Below, piece after piece: positions 6,111-39,373 of a stretch of 55,653 nucleotides of DNA (its first letter is position 1; each line of letters opens with the position of its first letter). The position numbers were made by a program, and so were the translations under genes. This DNA is from a virus. Taxonomy: Duplodnaviria > Caudoviricetes. The notes beneath the pieces were generated by a model that saw only the letters and a program-made list of their open reading frames with translations, made no database searches and was not told the origin of the DNA. The stretch lies in the IMG/VR virus record IMGVR_UViG_3300011114_000465, positions 1 to 55,653 of that record; one strand, written 5' to 3'.

Positions 6111-6571
6111 ACTTATCCGCCAACTTCACCTTGAAAGAACTGACCAAGTCAGACACAGCCACCCGCCTGGGCATCGACAACACGCCCGACGAGGCCACAA
6201 TCGAAAACCTGAAGACCCTATGCGAGAACGTCCTCCAGCGCGTGCGCGACCACTTTGGCAAATCAGTGACCGTCAACAGCGGCTACCGCAGCCCTGAGTC
6301 CAATGCAGCCGTGGGCGGCAGCAAAACGTCTGACCACTGCAAGGGCCAGGCCGCTGACATCGAGATCGATGGCGTGCCCAACCCTGAGCTGGCCCAATGG
6401 ATCATGGATAACTGCGACTACACGCAGCTGATCCTGGAGTTTTACACCCAAGGCCAACCGAGTTCCGGCTGGGTCCACGTCTCTTACGACCCGAACAACC
6501 TGAAGAAACAAGAGCTGACCGCCGTCAAGGTGGCTGGCAAAACTCAGTATTTACCAGGATTGCAAGCGTAG
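6107..6571 (+). CDS. Endolysin, peptidase M15A family
   Basis: SGYRS, SDHCKGQAAD, WVHVSY zinc-peptidase motifs. Confidence 0.92.
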   Translation: MNLSANFTLKELTKSDTATRLGIDNTPDEATIENLKTLCENVLQRVRDHFGKSVTVNSGYRSPESNAAVGGSKTSDHCKGQAADIEIDGVPNPELAQWIMDNCDYTQLILEFYTQGQPSSGWVHVSYDPNNLKKQELTAVKVAGKTQYLPGLQA

Positions 6572-6664: not shown

Positions 6665-7651
6665 ATGGCAACAGCAGCAAATCCTTTTGACATTCAGACC
6701 GGGGGCACAACCGGCGGCACACTCACGCCAGGTACGGACACAACTGCCGCCCAGTTTGACCCGGTGCAGCGCCAGGTAAACGCCGCACAGGACACCACCT
6801 CTGGCCAGTTGCAGCGCATCATGGCCGAAGACAACCCGCTCATGCAGCAGGCACGCGCACAGGCCAAGCAAGGCATGGCAGCACGCGGCCTGGTCAACAG
6901 CTCTATGGCCCAAGGCGCGGGCGTTGCAGCCATGCTAGAGAAGGCCACACCGATTGCAAAGGCCGATGCCGATACTTATTTCAGTCAAGGCATAACCAAC
7001 CAGAATTCAGCCAACGTAGGTGGCCAGTTCAACGTCGGCCAGCAAAACCAGTTTGGCTTGCAAAAAGGTGCTCAGACATTTCAAGCTGGCCAACTGGCCA
7101 ACCAGCAAACATTCACGGCCACCCAAGCTGGCCTGGAACGCGAACAGCAATCCAAGCTGCAAGTGGCCCAACAGAACTTTACCGGTGCTCAGTCCGCCCT
7201 GGATCGCGCTCAGCAGCTGGCCTTGACCGACAAAAGCGTCCAGGCCCAGGCTGCATTGCAAAAAGCACAGCAAGATTTTGCTGGCGCTCAGGCTGGTCTG
7301 GACCGTGCGCAGCAAACAGCGTTGCAAACCGGCCAGCAAACCTTTACTGCTCAACAGGCAGCCCTTGACCGAACCCAAAGAACCGAGTTGCAAAACGATC
7401 AGCAGGCAGCGGCCCTGGAACAGATCGGGTTTAAGGCTAAGGTTGATTTGCAAAACATCCCGACCGCGTTTGCAGCCAACATCACCAACACCACCATGAG
7501 CGGCGTTAATTCAATCATGGCTGATGGCACGATGACGGCAGATGCTAAGAAGGCAGCCATCACCAACTTGATCACTTATGCCAACGCGCAAGTGGATTGG
7601 GCAAACAAGTTTTACAGTGCGGCCATTCCTCCCATCACACAACCGAAATGA
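6665..7651 (+). CDS. Internal virion/ejection protein (Q/A-rich)
   Basis: ARGLVNSS motif, repeated QxFxxxQxxLDR units; GGAG RBS. Confidence 0.65.
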   Translation: MATAANPFDIQTGGTTGGTLTPGTDTTAAQFDPVQRQVNAAQDTTSGQLQRIMAEDNPLMQQARAQAKQGMAARGLVNSSMAQGAGVAAMLEKATPIAKADADTYFSQGITNQNSANVGGQFNVGQQNQFGLQKGAQTFQAGQLANQQTFTATQAGLEREQQSKLQVAQQNFTGAQSALDRAQQLALTDKSVQAQAALQKAQQDFAGAQAGLDRAQQTALQTGQQTFTAQQAALDRTQRTELQNDQQAAALEQIGFKAKVDLQNIPTAFAANITNTTMSGVNSIMADGTMTADAKKAAITNLITYANAQVDWANKFYSAAIPPITQPK

Positions 7652-8094
7652 TTTACCGCAAAGCCAAATTAGAAGACGTGCCAGCCATCGTAGAGTTGGC
7701 CGTCATCTCTGTATCAAACGATCCGTTGCCCGTCAAAATCGACAAGTTGTCAATGGCGGACACGGCCAAGGTGTGTTTGAACCCAGCTCACTTTTTGTGG
7801 GTTGCTGAAGACGAGGACGGCAAGATTGTTGCCGCGTTTGCTGCATGTGTTCAAAAGAGTTTCTGGTTTGAACGCATGCAGTGTTCGGTGCTCTTGTATT
7901 ACACGACTGTCAAAGGCGCGGGCATTCAGTTGATTCGCGAATTTGCCAGATGGGTCAAAAGCAGATCGGGTATCAAGGTGGCAGTTATTTCATTGGAGCC
8001 AGGCGTGGATGAGCGCCTGGTTAAGTTTTTCAAACGCGTTGGGTTCTCGCGAGAGTCGCTCAACCTAACTTACGTTCGAGGAGTCTCAGCATGA
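7648..8094 (+). CDS. GNAT acetyltransferase-like protein
   Basis: IYRKAKLEDVPAI start, GAGIQLI, FFKRVGF; ATGA overlap gives start at 7648. Confidence 0.7.
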   Translation: MIYRKAKLEDVPAIVELAVISVSNDPLPVKIDKLSMADTAKVCLNPAHFLWVAEDEDGKIVAAFAACVQKSFWFERMQCSVLLYYTTVKGAGIQLIREFARWVKSRSGIKVAVISLEPGVDERLVKFFKRVGFSRESLNLTYVRGVSA

Positions 8095-16534: not shown

Positions 16535-19500
16535 ATGGCTAATTGCACGTATCGGTTCACCGACGCGGACGGCAAAGAGCAAGTCATCGAAGGCCAAGCC
16601 GCGTTCAAAGCGTACCTGGCCAGCGGTGGCCTGGAACACTTGCTTCCATCCAGAGCTGTAGAAAAAGCTGATGAAGGCAGCCCCTTCACGGTTGCTTTTA
16701 GCAATAAGCAGACACCGGTTTCCGAATGGCCGGAAACTGAAAAACACATAGGCCGAGTTACAAGCTACGAAGCAAAGCCGGGTGAGTTCATTACCGTGTT
16801 ACGCCTGGCCAATATGGAAGGACTAGATAACGCCAACGCGGCCAGCGTAGAAGGTTTGTATACCTACCTGTCAATGGTTGATGATAGAGAATCCGCAGCT
16901 GGCGGAGAAGCTAAAGACTCTGACACCATCTATGCTTACAAGGTTCAAGTTCCTGAAAAAGGATTTAAGGAGTACGCCGCAAACCGTGGCGGAAAAGCAA
17001 TCGGTTTGCAAGATGAGGTTACCGGTGCAGGGCGCATGCCTGCAAAATGGGGCGGCTTCTGGTATTCATTTCCAGTAGGAACAAAGGCCGAGCTGTTAGG
17101 TTCAATACCCCTGGCCACCGCGCGGTCCACGTTAAAGGAAATGGCGGACTCTGATAATTTCGATTACGCGGGATCAGAGCTTGGGGCCAAGGCTTTGTAT
17201 GCCGCATTTAACACGGAAAGCAGCCCGCTGTTTAGCCGGTCTCAAAACGTGCCCGAGCTGGAGCCGGAAGACGTACTCAAGCCAAGCACGATTGCAGCCG
17301 CTGAGGCAGCCATCAAGCGTTACAAAAAGGCCGAGGCACCCGATACCCTTACCGCCAAACAACGGGCCGATGGTGAGGCTTTGCTCAAGCCCATGTTCGA
17401 TGGGGCCACACGCAATAAGGCAGACTTCGACAAGACCCTGGACCAGATTGCCGAAGGCTTGGGTGGCTACGCCAAGAAGCCGGGCATCAAAGGTTTGACC
17501 AGGGCCGTGACCAAGTTGATCACCGAGAACGGCAACGATCCAACCACGATGAAGGATTTGCTGCGCGGCACGATCGTGGTCAATACCTTCCAGGAAGCCC
17601 AGGAAGCGATCAATCAGATCGGCAAGGCGTATACCTTCGATCGGATTAAAAACCGCTTGGCTGTCGATCTGACAAGCCCTGACGGTACTGTGCTCAAGGG
17701 TGTTCCTTTGTCAACCGGATACCAAGACATCCTGACAAACGTGACCCTGGAAGATGGCACGGTTGCAGAGATTCAGATCAGCACGCCCGAGATGTTGGCT
17801 GCCAAGCATTTAGGCCATGAGGTTTATGCGTTTACAAGGGAGATGCCAGAAAGCCCTATTAAGGCCAAGATGGTTGACCTTCAAAAGCAGATTTACTCTG
17901 AGGGGTACGACGCTTATTTGGCGCGTGAAGCAAAGGCTTTAAAGACCCGTTCAAATTCAGCCTTGTCGACTGGGTCTCCTTTTTCCCGCACGTCCGAAGG
18001 GTTGCGCGGCTCAGGTGCTGGCAACCAGGCGGTGGCAGAACGCCAGCCAGGTGCGACTGTCACTGGCACCTCGTTCCAGTCAAAGAACATGGTGCCTGGT
18101 GGTAAGGATTTGAAGTCGAAGTCCATGTCACCAAGTATACCTGAAAGCATTGGTATCAACGTAAACCAGGACGGAAACAATAAATACGCCGACAAAATCG
18201 TTGACGGCGAGAAGACCTTAGAGACCCGCGCGTCTGATTCGTTGCGCCCATACGTCGGCAAACGGGTAGCCATTGTCCGTACTGGCGAAGGCCCGGCCAA
18301 GGCAATTGGCGCAGTGACGATTGGTGAGCCTATCAAGGTCACCACACAAAAACAGTTTGATCAATACCGCAATCAAACCCTGGTGCCCAAAGATTCCAAG
18401 TTCGACATCGCTCCAGGTGGTGTGAAGTATTTGTACCCCCTGGAAAACCCTGTTCGCTATGAGACTGAGCGCGATGTTGGCCAAGGCATCGTGGCTCGTA
18501 AGGTCATCGTGCCGGTAACCCGGGCTGCGCAAAAGAACGCAGCAGCCAGTCGCGTGGACAACGTATCAGCTGATCGATTCAAACGAACCGAACAACTCCA
18601 GCAAGCCGTCGCCGATCTGCAAGATGGCAAGATTACACGCACCGAGTACAACCGCATGGTCGACCAGGTGCGCCCGGTCTACCCATACAAAGAAGTACCC
18701 GCAGTCACGGCGGTCAAAGACGCTCGATACGCCCTGGCCACAGGCAAAGGCCAAAGCCCAGAGAAGGCAGCCAAGTACGGCCTGCCTGCCATGACATTCA
18801 AGCAAGGCGATTGGGCACAGTTGCGTTTGGACATTCCGTCATATCAGCTGCATGACACCTGGGTGGTCAGCGTACACACGCCCAAGTCAACCAACCGCGA
18901 AGTCCAAGCTGCATACGACGCTGGTCCAGTGGTCGGCTATGAGTCCGTGGCCGCGTTGAAAGACGTGACCTTTGGCATGAACCAAAAGGCCGCAGCCAAG
19001 ATAGCTACAGGCACCGCCAAGGGCACGATCGCTACCATGCTTGGCAAGTGGTCACCCATCAGCAGGGCCGACGCTAAGGCCCGCGCTGATGCGGCCCTCA
19101 ATGACCCAGCCTGGGTACAGGTTGGCATGGACCCATTCCGCCACAGCTACTTCTACAACCGCGACACCATGCAGCCGATCGTTCGCGCTGATGAGGTGAT
19201 CCAGATCGGCCCCTTGGTCTTGGCCAAGAACCCAGGATACAGCGAGGACGTTGACATCACTGGTGCCCCTTTCGCGTTTAGCAAGCGTGAAGAGATTGTC
19301 CAGATCGCGGACGACGCTGCACGCCAGGCCGTGTTCCTCCAGCAAAAGGCCGAAGAGGCTGGCTACAAAACAGTCGATGATTTTGTTGACAACGACTACA
19401 ACAAATTTGTTGAAGCAGCTAAGCAATGGCGTGAAGAGAACCCGGCTGAGATGATGTTCCAGAAACGTCAGACCAACCCGCCGGAATTAAAACGCTGGTT

Positions 19501-22500
19501 CAGAGACAGCAAAGCGGTTGATGCTAACGGCGAGCCGATGGTTCTTTACCGAGGCGAACATGGCGAAAGCGGGGACATGGATTTCCAATCACGCGTTGCG
19601 TCGCTATCGTTCGGCACCAAAGAGCTGGCCAATTTGTATGCTGAAAAACCAAATAGGTTTGGCGATCGGACCGTCAACCCTCGCGTCATTCCTGTGTATG
19701 TGCGTATTGAAAATCCTTTGATCAATACCCCGAATGACCCGTTCATTGAGTTGGGCGATGTGATCGATAAACTGGGTATGGATGTGGCCAAGTCAGCCGC
19801 ACACAAACTGTATGACGACATCTATAACTCAGGCCCTTGGTTTAGCACGTACTCAGAAAAGTATGAAGGCATTGACGCGCTGATTAAAAAAGACCCCGAG
19901 GCTTTGCGCAATTTGTATGTGTTGGCCTGGAAGTTTTTTGATGATTTTGAATTTGTAAATGCGGCCAAGAAGGCGGGATACGATGGCGCTATTCATGCGG
20001 AATACGGCGCTCATTCTGAAAACGAACAAGGCGCAGAGTACAAAGTGTTTGACCAATCCCAGGTCAAGTCAGCCATCGGCAACAACGGCGAGTTTGATGA
20101 GAACAACCCAGACATCCGCTTTGCACGCAAGCCCCTGGGCCGTGAGACTGAGGGTTGGATATTCAGCCGCGATGAGTTGGGTCGCTTCCGCTTCGGCGCT
20201 GGCGCAAAGGCTTATCGATATGCAGCAGACGTGGCCAACATCGTTCTTGGCAAGATTAACTTGAAGCCAGTCAGCCCTGAGCTGTCACGCGCCCTGCGCA
20301 AGATGCGCGTTGAAATAGATAAGGCTCAAAACTTGACGGTCGATGTGGCCAAGAATCTCAAAGACTTGCCCAAGCAAGAACGCGACATGATCAGCGATGT
20401 GATTGAAGGCGAACTCAAAGCTGGTATTCGCCCACCAAAACGCGTGCTTGAATTAGCTGCGTCTATGCAGTCGATCATGTCTGAACAGACAGCAGAGCTG
20501 GTGCGCCTGGGCATGCTTTCGCCCCAGGCCGCTGGCCGCTGGGATGGCAAGTACCTGCCACGCTTCTACGAACAAAAGCTCGGCGACGAAACCAAGGCAT
20601 GGATGAAAGCGGTCAAGAATTTGCTGGCCCGCAAGACAACCATGCAAGGTATTCGCGGCAGCAGTCTGAAAGCACGGGGCATGTTCCAAAACGTACCAGT
20701 GGCTGAGCTTGATGACTGGACCAACGAAGGCTGGCAAGTTCGAGATGACAACTTTGATCCAGCGGTCGATGACACCATTACGATCTGGCGCGATTACACG
20801 CGCGATGAACGCGACGACATGGGTGAGATTCGTGATGCCATGTTCCGCTTTGTCATGGGCTACAACAAGAGCCAGCGCGACATTGCTCTTGGTCGTTTGT
20901 ATGAAAACCTAGCCGCCAACTACGGCAAAAAACGTGAAGAGCCTGGCTACGTACAAGTACCTGCGACCAAAGTCGAAGACACCATGGTCCCCCGATACGG
21001 CAAGCTCGCGGGCAAATGGGTGCCAAAAGAAATTCTTCATCAACTCGAAGGCTTTGATCAATCGATGCAAAACGATTTGATCAAGATATACCTCAAGGGT
21101 TTGTCGATGTGGAAAGAAGGCAAGACTGTTCTCAACCCAGTCGCTCACGCAAACAACGTGCTGTCGAACTTGACGATGGCCCACTTTGCTGGCGTGTCTT
21201 ACTGGGATACACACAAGTACGTTGGCGCAATTGCCGACCTGGTCAAAGGTAAGGCCATGGTTGACGAAGCAAGGGAAGCCGGTTTATTTGGTGCCACGTT
21301 TGATCGCGCCGAGCTGATGAAAGTCATGCCTGAAGAACTCAAAGCCATGGCGCAAATGACCGAGTCAGCCGTTGCTCGCAACGTCGACCGTCTGTGGAAC
21401 GCGCTGTCTTTGTTCTTGCGCAAACCAATGGGCGCAGCATACGGTGCTGAAGACGAATTCTTCCGGTACATGATTTATCGCGATGCACGCAATCGCGGTT
21501 TAGGCGTGGATGATTCAGTTGACTATGCGCAAAAGTACATCTTCACATACGACGATTTGCCAAAGACCGCACGCATCATTCGCGACATGCCTCTTGGTTT
21601 GCCTTTCTTCAGCTACACGTTCAAGGCCATTCCGGCTTTGGCCAACACCGCTTTGGAACACCCGTTCCGTTATGCCGCGCCAGCGGTTGCCTTGTACACC
21701 GCAAACGCAATGATGTATGCAATGGCTGCAAGCCTGGGCGGTGGTGATGACGAAGACTGGTGGACCGTGATTCGTCGTTACATGACAGACGAAGAGTTCC
21801 GCAACAAGGCCAAGGCCATGGAGAAGCAAGAGCGTCAGTTCTTGCCGGATTGGATGAAGGGCGCAAGCCTGTCATTGGGCACTGAAAAAACCATACGCTT
21901 AGGCATGGACGACGTGACGAACTTACCGGTCTTCCTGGACGTAAGTCGCATTTTCCCGGGCGGTGATTTGTTTGATGCTCACAACAATGCGGGTGGCGTT
22001 CCCATGCTGGCACCGTTGACACCGAACAACCCAATCTTGACTTCTATTGTTGCGCTTAGTTACAACAAAGACACATTCCGAAATAAAGAGATTACCCTTA
22101 AAACCGACACCGACGCAGAGGCCGCGCAAAAACGTGCGGCCTGGGCTTGGAAACAGGTTACACCTGCAATCTCTTTGGGCAACACATTGTTTGAACGTGC
22201 AATGAATGTGATCGCCAACAGCACCGGCGAACCAGTTGACGTGGGCCTGGCCGAGTACACCGGCATCGGCGCAGATGGTTTGCCCATCCAACCTAAATAC
22301 GCAGCGATGCAAACCGTGGGTATTAAGGCGCGACCTATTGACCTTGATACATCAGAGAAGATTCAAGAGTCGCAAACCAAGGCGATGATACGAGACTTGG
22401 ATACTCAGATGCGCAAGCTCAAGCGTTTGGAAGGCAAAGGCGCAATCACCCCCGAAACATCCGAGCGTGAACGTGAGAAATTGCGTCAGAAGAAACAGTT

Positions 22501-22543
22501 TCTAAAAGAGGGGCTGACTGTTGAGGGGGAGGAGAAAGACTAA
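16535..22543 (+). CDS. Giant polyvalent virion protein 2: RelA/SpoT-like synthetase, ASCH, unknown domains, ART-like domain, large helical C-terminus
   Basis: IKGLTRAVTK..DLLRGTI..GYQD..EIQI..HEVY; IVDGEKTLETR; GEPMVLYRG..GYDG..QVKSAIGNNGEFD. Confidence 0.8.
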   Translation: MANCTYRFTDADGKEQVIEGQAAFKAYLASGGLEHLLPSRAVEKADEGSPFTVAFSNKQTPVSEWPETEKHIGRVTSYEAKPGEFITVLRLANMEGLDNANAASVEGLYTYLSMVDDRESAAGGEAKDSDTIYAYKVQVPEKGFKEYAANRGGKAIGLQDEVTGAGRMPAKWGGFWYSFPVGTKAELLGSIPLATARSTLKEMADSDNFDYAGSELGAKALYAAFNTESSPLFSRSQNVPELEPEDVLKPSTIAAAEAAIKRYKKAEAPDTLTAKQRADGEALLKPMFDGATRNKADFDKTLDQIAEGLGGYAKKPGIKGLTRAVTKLITENGNDPTTMKDLLRGTIVVNTFQEAQEAINQIGKAYTFDRIKNRLAVDLTSPDGTVLKGVPLSTGYQDILTNVTLEDGTVAEIQISTPEMLAAKHLGHEVYAFTREMPESPIKAKMVDLQKQIYSEGYDAYLAREAKALKTRSNSALSTGSPFSRTSEGLRGSGAGNQAVAERQPGATVTGTSFQSKNMVPGGKDLKSKSMSPSIPESIGINVNQDGNNKYADKIVDGEKTLETRASDSLRPYVGKRVAIVRTGEGPAKAIGAVTIGEPIKVTTQKQFDQYRNQTLVPKDSKFDIAPGGVKYLYPLENPVRYETERDVGQGIVARKVIVPVTRAAQKNAAASRVDNVSADRFKRTEQLQQAVADLQDGKITRTEYNRMVDQVRPVYPYKEVPAVTAVKDARYALATGKGQSPEKAAKYGLPAMTFKQGDWAQLRLDIPSYQLHDTWVVSVHTPKSTNREVQAAYDAGPVVGYESVAALKDVTFGMNQKAAAKIATGTAKGTIATMLGKWSPISRADAKARADAALNDPAWVQVGMDPFRHSYFYNRDTMQPIVRADEVIQIGPLVLAKNPGYSEDVDITGAPFAFSKREEIVQIADDAARQAVFLQQKAEEAGYKTVDDFVDNDYNKFVEAAKQWREENPAEMMFQKRQTNPPELKRWFRDSKAVDANGEPMVLYRGEHGESGDMDFQSRVASLSFGTKELANLYAEKPNRFGDRTVNPRVIPVYVRIENPLINTPNDPFIELGDVIDKLGMDVAKSAAHKLYDDIYNSGPWFSTYSEKYEGIDALIKKDPEALRNLYVLAWKFFDDFEFVNAAKKAGYDGAIHAEYGAHSENEQGAEYKVFDQSQVKSAIGNNGEFDENNPDIRFARKPLGRETEGWIFSRDELGRFRFGAGAKAYRYAADVANIVLGKINLKPVSPELSRALRKMRVEIDKAQNLTVDVAKNLKDLPKQERDMISDVIEGELKAGIRPPKRVLELAASMQSIMSEQTAELVRLGMLSPQAAGRWDGKYLPRFYEQKLGDETKAWMKAVKNLLARKTTMQGIRGSSLKARGMFQNVPVAELDDWTNEGWQVRDDNFDPAVDDTITIWRDYTRDERDDMGEIRDAMFRFVMGYNKSQRDIALGRLYENLAANYGKKREEPGYVQVPATKVEDTMVPRYGKLAGKWVPKEILHQLEGFDQSMQNDLIKIYLKGLSMWKEGKTVLNPVAHANNVLSNLTMAHFAGVSYWDTHKYVGAIADLVKGKAMVDEAREAGLFGATFDRAELMKVMPEELKAMAQMTESAVARNVDRLWNALSLFLRKPMGAAYGAEDEFFRYMIYRDARNRGLGVDDSVDYAQKYIFTYDDLPKTARIIRDMPLGLPFFSYTFKAIPALANTALEHPFRYAAPAVALYTANAMMYAMAASLGGGDDEDWWTVIRRYMTDEEFRNKAKAMEKQERQFLPDWMKGASLSLGTEKTIRLGMDDVTNLPVFLDVSRIFPGGDLFDAHNNAGGVPMLAPLTPNNPILTSIVALSYNKDTFRNKEITLKTDTDAEAAQKRAAWAWKQVTPAISLGNTLFERAMNVIANSTGEPVDVGLAEYTGIGADGLPIQPKYAAMQTVGIKARPIDLDTSEKIQESQTKAMIRDLDTQMRKLKRLEGKGAITPETSEREREKLRQKKQFLKEGLTVEGEEKD
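17914..18126 (-). CDS. Putative antisense nested gene (70 aa), candidate antitoxin of RelA/SpoT-like domain
   Basis: TATACT 7 nt before ATG (leaderless layout); globular-looking aromatic-rich product opposite a low-complexity linker. Confidence 0.65.
   Translation of the reverse strand: MDFDFKSLPPGTMFFDWNEVPVTVAPGWRSATAWLPAPEPRNPSDVREKGDPVDKAEFERVFKAFASRAK
18134..18139 (-). promoter_or_regulatory. -10 box for leaderless antisense transcript
   Basis: TATACT on minus strand; no correctly spaced -35 found. Confidence 0.5.
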
Positions 22544-22745
22544 GGCGCATGTCGTCCAGTCTTTCCACCAATCGATTGATTCGTTTCTGGTTGTACTCAA
22601 CCATGGCCACGTAATATTCAACCGATGTCTCTGCATCCATCTTGGCCAGCTGAGCTTCAAGCAGTTCATGTTCAGCAATTTCAATCGGTGTTTTGGACCG
22701 AAAGAAGTCGCGCACAAATTGAAGAATCAGTTCACGCTTGGTCAT
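22446..22745 (-). CDS. Hypothetical protein
   Basis: ATGA-coupled to upstream ORF; overlaps 3' end of polyvalent gene convergently. Confidence 0.6.
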   Translation of the reverse strand: MTKRELILQFVRDFFRSKTPIEIAEHELLEAQLAKMDAETSVEYYVAMVEYNQKRINRLVERLDDMRLSLSPPPQQSAPLLETVSSDAISHVHARMFRG

Positions 22746-22981
22746 GGTTTGTCCTTCACCCATAGGCAGTCAAAACAAATTTTCATCATCCAACGCACAA
22801 ACCAATTTGGCTCCTTGCCTTTGGTTGGTCGATAAATAATTCCTACGCCACCGGGTCGATTGCCAAACAAATAGCATTGCCATTCAGACTGTTGTGGTGT
22901 TGGTTGAAATTTGTAGTCTTTTTTTACGATGAACTTGGCGTATTCCTCATCAAATGCTTTGTTGATTTCATAGTTGTTCAT
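22742..22981 (-). CDS. Hypothetical protein
   Basis: Coupled ORF in leftward operon. Confidence 0.65.
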   Translation of the reverse strand: MNNYEINKAFDEEYAKFIVKKDYKFQPTPQQSEWQCYLFGNRPGGVGIIYRPTKGKEPNWFVRWMMKICFDCLWVKDKP

Positions 22982-34322: not shown

Positions 34323-34525
34323 AAGGGTATTAGACGTGATTACATTACCCTGTCCTAATACCCTGACTCAAGTCCTTGATTCTTCTACTCTTTTTACCTT
34401 AAAGGGTAATAGGGTAATTGAATTGTTAGTATAAAAGGGGAGGAGAATATTTTTTATGATTGAAAAAATATCCCCCAATAAGGATATAGGGTTTTTGACC
34501 CCTAATACCCTATGCCCTAATGCCC
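34323..34525. other. Putative replication origin with (T/G)ACCCT/AGGGT iteron-like repeats
   Basis: AT-rich tract directly after primase with clustered AGGGTA/TACCCT repeats in both orientations. Confidence 0.55.
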
Positions 34526-34788
34526 TGGAACGGGATGTCGAAAGGCACCTGGTGAAGAGGGCCAAGGAGGCCGGAGGTATGGCACCTAAGTGGGTTTCAC
34601 CTGGCCACAGTGGGGTCCCGGATAGGATTGTTTTTCTGCCAGGCGGGCGGATTATTTTTGTGGAAGTCAAAGCCCCGGGCAAAAAGCTGAGGCCGCTTCA
34701 GGTCCACGTCAAAGGTCAGCTGGAAGCGTTGGGCGTGGATTTCAGGGTCGTCGATTCAAAGGAGAGCGTTAATGCTTTATTCTGCTAG
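34456..34788 (+). CDS. VRR-NUC nuclease (start uncertain)
   Basis: ERDVE..KWVSPG..GVPDR..FVEVKAPG...RPLQ. Confidence 0.9.
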   Translation: MIEKISPNKDIGFLTPNTLCPNALERDVERHLVKRAKEAGGMAPKWVSPGHSGVPDRIVFLPGGRIIFVEVKAPGKKLRPLQVHVKGQLEALGVDFRVVDSKESVNALFC

Positions 34789-37137: not shown

Positions 37138-37379
37138 GTCGTCACCTCCGGGCATCTTTCAAACAAGGCGACCAGCTTAGGGTCATCGATCTGGGTCCAG
37201 CCGTCTGGCCGATACCAAACTCCGTCCAGCTCGTGTGCGACCTGGCGACCGTAGTCGATTGGCCATCGAGAGGATTCGAGGATGCCCTCGCGGGGCATGT
37301 GTTGTGGTTGCACCGAATACACGGCACGGTTGCCGCTGGGCAGCGTGACGAGCATGTTGGTGTTCGAGAGATTAGGCAT
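37134..37379 (-). CDS. Hypothetical protein
   Basis: Coupled ORF. Confidence 0.6.
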   Translation of the reverse strand: MPNLSNTNMLVTLPSGNRAVYSVQPQHMPREGILESSRWPIDYGRQVAHELDGVWYRPDGWTQIDDPKLVALFERCPEVTT

Positions 37380-37909
37380 TAGAGCTCCTTCATTTTGGCT
37401 ACGGTTTCAGTTAAAGCGGATGCCATGGGCGCACCCCTGGCAGCGATGATGCTGGCCAATTCGGTGTAGTACCACAAGACGTCTTCCTTGGGTGCCTTGA
37501 ATTTTGCAAACACTGTGGGACCGTCGGAGACGATCGCCCTGGCGTTGTGCAATTTGTCAGACCCGGCAATCAGAAGAGCGTCGTTGCTTGCCTTGGCTAA
37601 GTGAGCCAGGTACTCGATTCTTTTTTCTTTCCAAGTGCCTTTGCCGAGGTGGCTGACGGCCATCACCAGGTCAGCGACATAGGGGCCAAACTCTTCTCTG
37701 ATCGGGACGATGTACGCCCGACCAGCGTCTTCGACCACGTCGTGGAGAACGGCTGCAATGGCAACGTCCTCACTGCCACCGTACTCCATGGCCATGGCCG
37801 AGACAGCGAGCGGGTGAGATATGTAGGGCACGGTCGTGCCGGTTCTGAATACGCCGTAGTGGGCGGCAACGGCCATAGCCACGGCTTTGGCATAACGGGC
37901 TCTGCTCAT
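37379..37909 (-). CDS. HD-domain hydrolase, SpoT/Mesh1 (small alarmone hydrolase) type
   Basis: AH....R.....PYISHP, AAVLHDVVED, DKLHN. Confidence 0.88.
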   Translation of the reverse strand: MSRARYAKAVAMAVAAHYGVFRTGTTVPYISHPLAVSAMAMEYGGSEDVAIAAVLHDVVEDAGRAYIVPIREEFGPYVADLVMAVSHLGKGTWKEKRIEYLAHLAKASNDALLIAGSDKLHNARAIVSDGPTVFAKFKAPKEDVLWYYTELASIIAARGAPMASALTETVAKMKEL

Positions 37910-38416: not shown

Positions 38417-39373
38417 TTACGCGGTTAACAAGTCCAAAGCGCGGGACTTGAGGTCAGCGCCTGCACCCCACTGGGATGCAACGAAGCGGTTCTCATCGCT
38501 ACGAGCGCGGACGTGGTGGTCAGCGTATTCAGTGACCGCGTTGAGGAAGCCCCAACGTGTACCGAAGACACCGTCCATGGTGGAGCCCATGCCGCCGCCG
38601 TTGAAAAGGTCGAGGACCTTCTTAAAGCCAGCAGACTCGCGAGCCTTTTCACCACCACCGAAGAGCGCAACAGCCATGTCACCGGCCTCCTCTTCGTGCA
38701 TGTCGACGTTGGCCAGGCTTGTCACTGTGTGACGGAAGGCATCCCATGCAGCAGTGTTCAGGCCCATGAATTCTTTGATCGATTCGGGGTTGAACACAGA
38801 GCGGTGAGTTACCTTGAAAGACGCGGGAGCGTCGGTCATGGCCATCTGCAAAGTGTTCTTGCAGACGGTACGCACAGTGGTACGACGTACCTCAGTGGAC
38901 AACGAACCGTCAGCCGATGTGCTGATCAGGATGTAGCCACCGATCTTGTCGGCCAGTGAAGCGGGAGAGGCTTCGCCGATCTTGGCCGTAGCCCAGAAGC
39001 GTTTGCCACCGTAGATCGTGCCAGCAGCTGACAACTCCAGGCCACCGGCCTTGGCGATGTCGCGGAAGAACTCGATCACTTCACCAGGCTGCACGACCTG
39101 GTACTTGCGGGACACGACACCCAAGGGTGCTTTCGTGTCGGAGCGGAACAGAACGTGCTGGTCCGGCAATTCCACCTGGCCACCGTTGTATTCGGTGTTG
39201 AAGCGGACGATGCCACGCTTGATCTTCCAGTCCATGCCAGCGGCCTCGCGCCAAGCATCGAGGCTGGTGCCGTCGGCGAGTGCTTGGCCAAGGCCGTGCC
39301 AGGGTGTTCCGTCCGAAGCCAAGTAGGCAAATTCGACACGGCCATTAGCGCGGGTTGTGAGTTCGTGAGACAT
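38417..39373 (-). CDS. DUF932 family protein
   Basis: PWHGLG, AGMDW, LGVVS..Y..VQ, RTVCKNTL, NAVTEYADH. Confidence 0.9.
   Translation of the reverse strand: MSHELTTRANGRVEFAYLASDGTPWHGLGQALADGTSLDAWREAAGMDWKIKRGIVRFNTEYNGGQVELPDQHVLFRSDTKAPLGVVSRKYQVVQPGEVIEFFRDIAKAGGLELSAAGTIYGGKRFWATAKIGEASPASLADKIGGYILISTSADGSLSTEVRRTTVRTVCKNTLQMAMTDAPASFKVTHRSVFNPESIKEFMGLNTAAWDAFRHTVTSLANVDMHEEEAGDMAVALFGGGEKARESAGFKKVLDLFNGGGMGSTMDGVFGTRWGFLNAVTEYADHHVRARSDENRFVASQWGAGADLKSRALDLLTA

Follow-up and report, generated by a model that had tools for sequence, protein, structure and literature searches.

The genome analysed here is the 55,653-base virus record IMGVR_UViG_3300011114_000465 (Duplodnaviria; Caudoviricetes), which is taken at its whole length, referred to as the window, and which represents a complete phage genome with direct terminal repeats. 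In silico analysis coupled with structure prediction established that P0001, a giant protein encoded at the end of a long late gene block, is a phage-type polyvalent protein in which one of several unrelated domains is almost certainly a RelA/SpoT homologue (RSH) synthetase domain of the Tas1 type, Tas1 (also named Apk1) being a type VI secretion effector of Pseudomonas aeruginosa that makes (p)ppApp. A small alarmone hydrolase of the stand-alone kind is encoded in the same genome, within a block of small minus-strand genes at a distance of some 15 kb from that domain. The explanation that best accounts for these observations as a whole is that P0001 carries a catalytically competent Tas1/Apk1-type module, which is ejected into the host and the effect of which is reversed by the hydrolase; for this composite explanation we would claim an even chance, its individual parts being differently placed.

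A preliminary description of the window, made from its letters, had proposed a RelA/SpoT-like synthetase domain at positions 17400 to 17910, and this proposal was confirmed, as the interval lies in frame in P0001 (amino acids 289-459) and the domain combines a profile match to Tas1 with an RSH fold. The motifs named in that description are all found in the translation, namely K319-GLT-R323-A324-VT-K327, D341-LL-R344, G395-Y396-Q-D398, E412-I-Q414-I and H428-EV-Y431; for the first of these the residues were correctly given while the spacing was not, being one residue wider (K...RA..K) than the K..RA..K described. The interval likewise captures the core of the domain and falls short of its full extent, which is approximately amino acids 240-480 (bases 17252-17974), the additional part including a long N-terminal helical stretch in the AlphaFold2 model. 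The toxic relatives to which the domain had been likened proved to be an apt comparison in view of the Tas1/Apk1-type match. A phmmer search with amino acids 240-480 against all PDB sequences returned just three matches at E<=10, where Tas1 (6ox6_A) was found at E 2.4e-7 and was the sole match under E 0.5, the other two standing at 0.55 and 0.8 and neither being an RSH protein. When the search was conducted with a 33-member family profile, A1, in which the window domain was joined by 32 short relatives, Tas1 was matched at E 2.6e-29, the next RSH protein being RelA (1.5e-3), ahead of SaEAS, an exported synthetase (0.018), among a total of eight matches at E<=1.

The AlphaFold2 model of the synthetase domain (mean pLDDT 95.9, pTM 0.90) yielded 59 Foldseek matches in the PDB at E<=1e-3; among the 26 listed all 26 are RSH synthetases, and Tas1 holds the top rank (E 1.3e-7, TM-score 0.72 by target length, root-mean-square deviation 2.9). 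Alignment with VIA-align gave Z scores of 14.4-15.8 to chains of SAS1, Tas1, RelP, RelQ-type enzymes and SaEAS, this being the small alarmone synthetase fold, with individual values of 15.8 for SAS1 (5ded), 15.5 for Tas1, 15.4 for RelP, 12.0 for CapRel (7ztb) and 7.2 for FaRel2 (8pu3). The Tas1 alignment covers 167 residues with a root-mean-square deviation of 2.3 and an identity of 26%, a value not exceeded by any other row scoring Z 12 or above. Certain results count against the assignment to the Tas1 type. The Pfam family RelA_SpoT (PF04607) scored 16.9 bits on the whole of P0001 and 21.3 bits (E 3.4e-4) on a 233-amino-acid fragment, its cut-off of 27 not being reached, no NCBIfam model matched P0001 or the domain alone, and the modelled structure, taken by itself, would not tell Tas1 from (p)ppGpp-making enzymes. 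The fold thus indicates an alarmone-synthetase-type enzyme, while the attribution to Tas1 specifically derives from the sequence comparisons only. The PF04607 cut-off was passed by three of 15 large homologues of the same domain (P0007 at 35.7, P0021 at 29.3 and P0025 at 27.4 bits).

The residues required for catalysis appear to have been retained, as K319, R323, K327, D341, R344, G395, Y396, D398, E412, Q414, K424, H428 and Y431 are each conserved in 95-100% of 147 aligned domain segments. With roles assigned from the descriptions of FaRel2 and Apk1, the latter with residue numbers from a 2025 mBio paper, the basic triphosphate-binding helix (K319/R323/K327), the Mg2+-binding aspartate (D341), the acceptor-stacking tyrosine (Y396) and the E-x-Q motif (E412/Q414) are all present. 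In Tas1 alignments R344, E412 and Q414 correspond to Apk1 R330, E382 and the glutamine two residues past E382, which are given as ATP-binding residues in the mBio paper (the glutamine being printed there as Q382), while the spacing D341-x-x-R344 is that of SaEAS D121/R124, the exchange D121A being present, according to the same paper, in the mutant SaEAS protein used for its crystal structure. Y396 is the counterpart of the acceptor-stacking tyrosine described for FaRel2, and the donor-site motifs are the Tas1 variants P-I-K...R...K and D-x-x-R. As judged from these residues, the synthetase module is very probably enzymatically active.

No other enzyme comes near to Tas1 in similarity to the domain, and adenine nucleotides would therefore be its favoured acceptors, so that (p)ppApp is, by a small degree, the product we expect to predominate. 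For Apk1 itself it is reported that (p)ppApp is made while ATP and ADP fall, with a turnover of about 180,000 per minute in the 2025 mBio paper. That same source describes, within the Apk1-like group, SaEAS as making both alarmones and VpEAS as making (p)ppGpp, and such differing products among Apk1-like enzymes tell against a firm prediction since homology leaves the product unfixed. An active and delivered module may instead chiefly make (p)ppGpp, or make both, in which case the host would undergo a stringent-like shutdown of transcription and translation and not a depletion of ATP. This alternative, which we consider unlikely, draws on the products of SaEAS and VpEAS, on a structural model that fits SAS1 and RelP as well as it fits Tas1, on the role of this kind that Iyer 2017 proposed for the RelA/SpoT domains of polyvalent proteins, and on the phage hydrolase, which is nearer to general small alarmone hydrolases (7qoe, 8.6e-31) than to the (p)ppApp-specific Aph1 (7smg, 1.7e-3). 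It is opposed by a profile similarity to Tas1 which lies some 26 orders of magnitude above that to any (p)ppGpp synthetase and by donor-site motifs that are of the Tas1 variety.

The family to which the domain belongs is a large one, as a search of 1.84 billion cluster representatives retrieved 899 proteins with E values up to 1e-3, of which 208 reached 1e-10 or better. Most domain-bearing relatives are between 1,500 and 5,200 amino acids long, with the domain in varying positions, and across about 78 of 93 listed clusters the synthetase domain is 58-97% identical. The lineage represents a clade of approximately 55-kb uncultivated phages, the family being labelled 'predicted transcriptional regulator' or 'hypothetical' in the source databases, while a viral structure library holds predicted relatives named 'ART-PolyVal-like domain-containing protein' (69% identical) and 'RelA/SpoT'. 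Deposited phages are poorly represented: megablast with the P0001 gene found no match among them, tblastn with the whole of P0001 matched 17 records, none over amino acids 240-480, and tblastn with the synthetase domain matched four records representing two phages, both weakly (Bordetella PHB04 and Sinorhizobium phiN3). The PHROGs matches of P0001 were to families of unknown function only. No relative was obtained by a single-protein search of a genome collection, and a degenerate motif pattern applied to that collection retrieved 20 stretches, 17 of which encode relatives at 23-36% identity; these are scattered over many phyla, and no host is assignable.

P0001 is a polyvalent protein of the phage type as named by Iyer 2017, since RSH, ASCH-like, L5-gp82-like and ART-PolyVal domains and a conserved C-terminal module are contained in one open reading frame (ORF), ART-PolyVal being among the hallmark domains of the class, and the same virus record encodes a portal-terminase packaging system (terminase, portal, major head protein and adaptor). 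Twelve of the 15 large homologues carry LPD38, LPD22, LPD3, ART-PolyVal, ddrB-ParB, MuF_C, Zeta_toxin or similar domains, the other three matching no family. No MuF family was found among the Pfam matches of P0001 at E<=1, while MuF_C is present in two of the 15 distant homologues. BLAST comparisons established that the internal domain order varies among homologues with the C-terminal module fixed at the end. The leader was matched in nine of nine related loci, over about 40-45 amino acids in seven and over longer stretches in L003 and L004, and it may constitute a packaging or anchoring signal. At one of these loci (L002, 9032-14626), which has an RSH domain of 95% identity, the 45-amino-acid leader is directly followed by the ART domain, ahead of the RSH domain, whereas in P0001 a different N-terminal domain of 190 amino acids follows the leader and the ART domain is placed after the gp82-like domain; this difference is the result of recent domain shuffling.

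A short motif composed of phenylalanine, then S, A or Q, then R or K (as in PLFSRS, PFSRT, FAFSKR, MFQKRQ and RFARKP) was also observed in P0001 in eight copies, as compared to 2.0 in shuffles, at amino acids 233, 483, 514, 915, 975, 1017, 1196 and 1210, which are mostly predicted domain borders. The associated P of about 0.0015 is flattering as the pattern was defined after it had been sighted, and the motifs may represent linker or processing sites. In P0001 no stretch of 19 amino acids exceeds a Kyte-Doolittle hydropathy of 1.5, and a reading of its C-terminus as a membrane channel was dropped for this reason.

Delivery of P0001 in the virion is somewhat favoured by analogy. Phage polyvalent proteins as a class are predicted to be packaged (Iyer 2017) and the P0001 gene is the last of a late block, while a further pointer comes from the gp82-like domain, which also occurs in gp54 of Roseobacter phage CRP-9, encoded between portal and coat genes. 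An additional link leads to Stx phages, whose giant protein is about 30% identical (E ~1e-94) to the C-terminal half of the close relative P0002; the P0001 C-terminal module is remotely related to the P0002 counterpart, and a 2026 preprint detected the giant protein gp47 of phi24B, which is LPD38-type, in virions by proteomics and put it forward as an ejection protein. The module itself scored 0.97 in language-model features to LPD38 clusters, and the remote relationship was seen with hhalign, which paired the module with the part of relatives that immediately precedes LPD38 (probability 96.7%, E 3.2e-10). Set against delivery are the absence of any Pfam family, LPD38 included, from the matches of the C-terminal module, and a score of 3.4 bits only when its profile was compared directly with the giant protein of Stx phages, so that two steps, and a remote relationship, separate it from the virion protein seen by proteomics. 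To these must be added the fate of the 'ejection-protein cluster' in which the preliminary description had located the domain, as this was not recovered: family scans of the window ORFs matched no known ejection protein among the neighbours of P0001.

The hydrolase gene had been overlooked in the preliminary description and bears directly on mechanism. Its product, for which an internal methionine is the likely start, scored 61.7 bits with HD_4 (cut-off 27.2), and its closest PDB matches are the stand-alone HD-domain proteins 7qoe (E 8.6e-31) and 7qoc (8.2e-23), followed by PaSAH (2.4e-5) and Aph1 (1.7e-3). An alignment of 11 phage hydrolases shows no variation at the HD, ED and D...N residues. 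The protein is 35% identical, over 72% of its length, to the hydrolase of Salmonella phage SSU5, which neutralised five of the five toxic small alarmone synthetases (toxSAS) tested by Jimmy 2020. Pfam scans of the window ORFs turned up no Tis1- or IapK-like protein, the presence of such models in the library being unverified.

The association between synthetase domain and hydrolase was determined across viral contigs. A profile scan, made with a single peptide pattern, identified 145 contigs with the synthetase domain, 80 of which were kept, and among the 27 of at least 35 kb that were examined HD_4 was present in ten, in nine of them above the cut-off; at a completeness of at least 90% it was present in 8 of 19. 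An arbitrary 14-mer, used to draw control contigs, yielded 119 stretches, of which 80 were listed and the 29 of at least 30 kb examined, and HD_4 was found in none of these (0/17 for the complete ones), the enrichment having a Fisher p of 2.4e-4 (10/27 versus 0/29) or 3.3e-3 when only complete contigs are compared (8/19 versus 0/17). Among nine close relatives of the phage, three records contain HD_4 and the other six are fragments, 16-56% complete. In two distant viral contigs Tas1-like and HD_4 domains are united in a single ORF (L105, 1186-17028, minus strand, 5280 amino acids; L106, 3649-18330, plus strand, 4893 amino acids), which also holds ddrB-ParB, Eco57I-type methylase and helicase domains, plus LPD38 or InPase. 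These fusions support a functional link between the two activities.

Several of these comparisons also detract from such a link. The hydrolases of the ten HD_4-positive contigs sort into about six groups by sequence, with 20-31% identity between groups, which implies fewer than ten independent events; HD_4 is missing from 11 of the 19 complete domain-bearing contigs; and the association is asymmetric, as a reverse test in which 80 hydrolase-bearing contigs were kept and the 47 of at least 35 kb examined found the synthetase domain in just one (1/16 for complete contigs). The fusions in L105 and L106, for their part, argue against a simple timing in which the hydrolase is a late antidote. On balance we incline slightly towards a functional coupling of the hydrolase to the synthetase, a view that gene co-occurrence and gene fusion suggest.

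The same data bear on the possibility that the enzyme is real and is not ejected, the giant protein acting late in the producing cell or as a structural or assembly protein with enzymatic domains that are active there, and the hydrolase serving independently to counter host defence by toxSAS or the stringent response. Delivery for this phage does rest on analogy, and phage hydrolases are widespread without the domain, the viral collection containing no fewer than 504 relatives, with a single domain-bearing contig among the 47 large ones, and 127 of 50,697 deposited phage records matched by tblastn; furthermore, Jimmy 2020 proposed that phage hydrolases bypass alarmone-based defence. This possibility is nevertheless quite unlikely in our estimation, given that HD_4 is enriched in domain-bearing contigs, that synthetase and HD_4 have twice been fused in one ORF, that a late-expressed toxin offers no obvious gain in the producing cell, and that a giant LPD38-type protein was found in phi24B virions according to the preprint.

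Modification of tRNA by pyrophosphorylation would be a very improbable activity for the module: the fold is common to CapRel and FaRel2 and adenine is the acceptor base in both reactions, while neither CapRel nor FaRel2 is among the eight profile matches at E<=1 and their structural scores lie under those of Tas1 and the small alarmone synthetases. That the domain is a catalytically dead remnant serving as a structural spacer is most improbable, its sub-threshold Pfam score being outweighed by the near-complete retention of the checked catalytic positions and by the level of identity across the listed clusters.

The events envisaged under the preferred explanation, namely an ejected Tas1/Apk1-type module the effect of which is reversed by the hydrolase, would be as follows. 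The giant protein would be synthesised late in infection, enter the capsid and leave it together with the DNA, whereupon a few copies of the module would move the beta-gamma pyrophosphate of ATP onto adenine nucleotides at their 3'-OH. The product would be (p)ppApp, perhaps with some (p)ppGpp. The host adenylate pool would drop and host metabolism would be shut in the first minutes, until the phage hydrolase, expressed from the incoming genome, degraded the product and gave the nucleotides back. The bacterial ATP pool amounts to a few million molecules per cell. With this pool size and an Apk1-like turnover, one to few ejected copies could matter within minutes. A depletion of ATP looks costly for a phage relying on host energy, and this speaks against the proposed sequence of events. 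A more elaborate version, which is rather unlikely as it stands, is that phage polyvalent proteins harbour a two-part alarmone 'pulse' device, where an ejected Tas1-type synthetase collapses the adenylate pool within minutes, thereby stalling ATP-dependent defences and host synthesis, and where the pulse is ended by the hydrolase, which would be an early product or a part of the same giant protein and would restore the nucleotides to the phage.

Among solved structures Tas1 (PDB 6OX6) is the nearest relative in sequence, profile and Foldseek comparisons; it has the same donor-site and catalytic residues and is itself a delivered effector domain within a larger carrier. Tas1 resides on a PAAR carrier of the type VI secretion system and is neutralised by binding of the immunity protein Tis1, whereas the synthetase domain of the window is carried by a phage polyvalent protein, the identity is 22-26%, and the Pfam scans of the window revealed no gene resembling Tis1. 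A second comparison is with the Apk2 enzymes, (p)ppApp synthetases that temperate phages encode as MuF fusions, with IapK and Aph1 as immunity proteins (Ahmad 2023; Bartoli 2023, 2025); these synthetases are likewise phage-encoded, of the Apk type, borne on a presumed capsid-internal carrier and accompanied by an alarmone hydrolase, and for which co-injection with DNA is also a proposal. P0001 differs in having no MuF domain and in that the synthetase is one of at least five modules, and its phage differs in that the hydrolase lies at a distance on the opposite strand, not adjacent, is nearer to general hydrolases than to Aph1, and is found in a genome where no integrase was detected among the ORFs scanned. 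The RelA/SpoT polyvalent proteins of Iyer 2017 (Iyer, Burroughs, Anand, de Souza and Aravind) belong to the same architectural class with the same proposed role; that study lists RelA/SpoT among the phage-type-only domains and proposes an alarmone-like host shutdown, and as it predates Tas1 it assumes (p)ppGpp, while the present lineage consists of uncultivated phages of about 55 kb. The hydrolases PaSpo of SSU5 and PbcSpo of PVP-SE1 (Jimmy 2020) resemble the window enzyme in kind and both neutralise all five toxSAS examined, and they differ in that SSU5 is not among the matches to the synthetase domain and that the hydrolase is interpreted in that paper as counter-defence.

The kind of system described here is therefore already published, in the form of polyvalent RelA/SpoT domains (Iyer 2017), MuF-fused Apk2 with IapK or Aph1, and phage alarmone hydrolases. 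What appear, within the reach of the literature searches, to be unpublished are the Tas1/Apk1 identity of the polyvalent modules, the size of the clade of approximately 55-kb uncultivated phages and the statistical link to the hydrolase. A full-text literature search located no paper joining polyvalent proteins with ppApp, while the Apk1-homologue supplements of the 2025 mBio paper may include polyvalent proteins; the word 'polyvalent' is absent from the main text, exclusive of supplementary lists, of the Whitney-lab Apk papers searched.

The coordinates of the features discussed are collected in the following table.

Features of P0001 and of the phage genome encoding it (positions in the 55,653-base window)
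Feature	Position	Strand	Remarks
Polyvalent protein ORF P0001	16535..22543	+	2002 aa; several unrelated domains in one polypeptide
N-terminal leader, ~45 aa	16535..16669	+	75-88% identity in relatives with a different next domain
Tas1/Apk1-like RSH pyrophosphokinase (alarmone synthetase) domain	17252..17974	+	aa 240-480; sequence, profile, AlphaFold model, Foldseek
ASCH-like domain	18080..18520	+	20.9 bits, just below Pfam cut-off 21.2; 78-98% identity in 8/9 related loci
L5 gp82-like domain (mycobacteriophage L5; PF25735)	18500..19480	+	27.3 bits on fragment (cut-off 27), 23.7 on whole protein
ART-PolyVal ADP-ribosyltransferase domain	19481..20149	+	43.8 bits (cut-off 31.2), 49.5 in another scan
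Conserved C-terminal module, ~800 aa	20147..22540	+	always C-terminal in related giant proteins
Stand-alone small alarmone hydrolase (HD_4 / RSH hydrolase domain)	37379..37909	-	176 aa from internal Met; longest ORF to 38056
Structural and lysis genes			terminase, portal, major head protein, SU10-type adaptor, tail-fibre proteins, spanin, endolysin
Replication genes			DNA polymerase, primase-helicase, others

The P0001 gene closes a long co-oriented late block, in which head and tail genes are followed by lysis genes, and is the final plus-strand gene ahead of the minus-strand replication genes. No sigma-70-like promoter match was found on either strand between positions 6400 and 24300, as compared to 10.1 +/- 3.2 in shuffles, a gap which fits a single long transcription unit or a promoter type other than sigma-70. 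P0001 starts 4 nucleotides after the stop of a ferritin-like ORF (16039-16530, plus strand; Pfam Ferritin, 60.9 bits), which is located between two giant ORFs and is kept at 83-98% identity in eight of nine related loci, a ferritin/Dps-like gene within a late phage block being unusual. Directly upstream of it an ORF of 1754 amino acids (10766-16030, plus strand) has no match in Pfam, PHROG or NCBIfam, while its language-model features point weakly (<=0.88) to other polyvalent-type phage proteins, and it may specify a second cargo or ejection protein. The lysis genes are separated from the giant ORFs by a group in which four ORFs without a family match surround a GNAT-like acetyltransferase ORF (7597-8094, plus strand; E 1.5e-14 to a PHROG acetyltransferase family, its Pfam score not reaching the cut-off). 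Elsewhere in the genome a DUF932 protein (38417-39373, minus strand; 173 bits) adjoins the hydrolase block, and a VRR-NUC nuclease (34456-34788, plus strand) is located beside a helicase. A 104-amino-acid ORF at 22521-22835 was rejected as an adjacent immunity gene owing to its unnatural-looking translation and to its being full-length in only two of nine relatives, with three more having it in part.

Whether a phage injects an alarmone synthetase is an open question in the papers on MuF-fused Apk2, and the polyvalent lineage represents a second, MuF-independent carrier for the same type of enzyme, in a family that the present finding brings to attention from behind the labels under which the databases hold it. 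If synthetase and hydrolase do work as a pair, alarmone chemistry would serve phages as an active tool, a metabolic switch with a set timing, and not for defence alone. Should the pulse device prove true, the repeated pairing in separate hydrolase groups, together with the two fusions, would mark a selected strategy of a large group of uncultivated phages and not a toxin-immunity cassette of bacterial competition.

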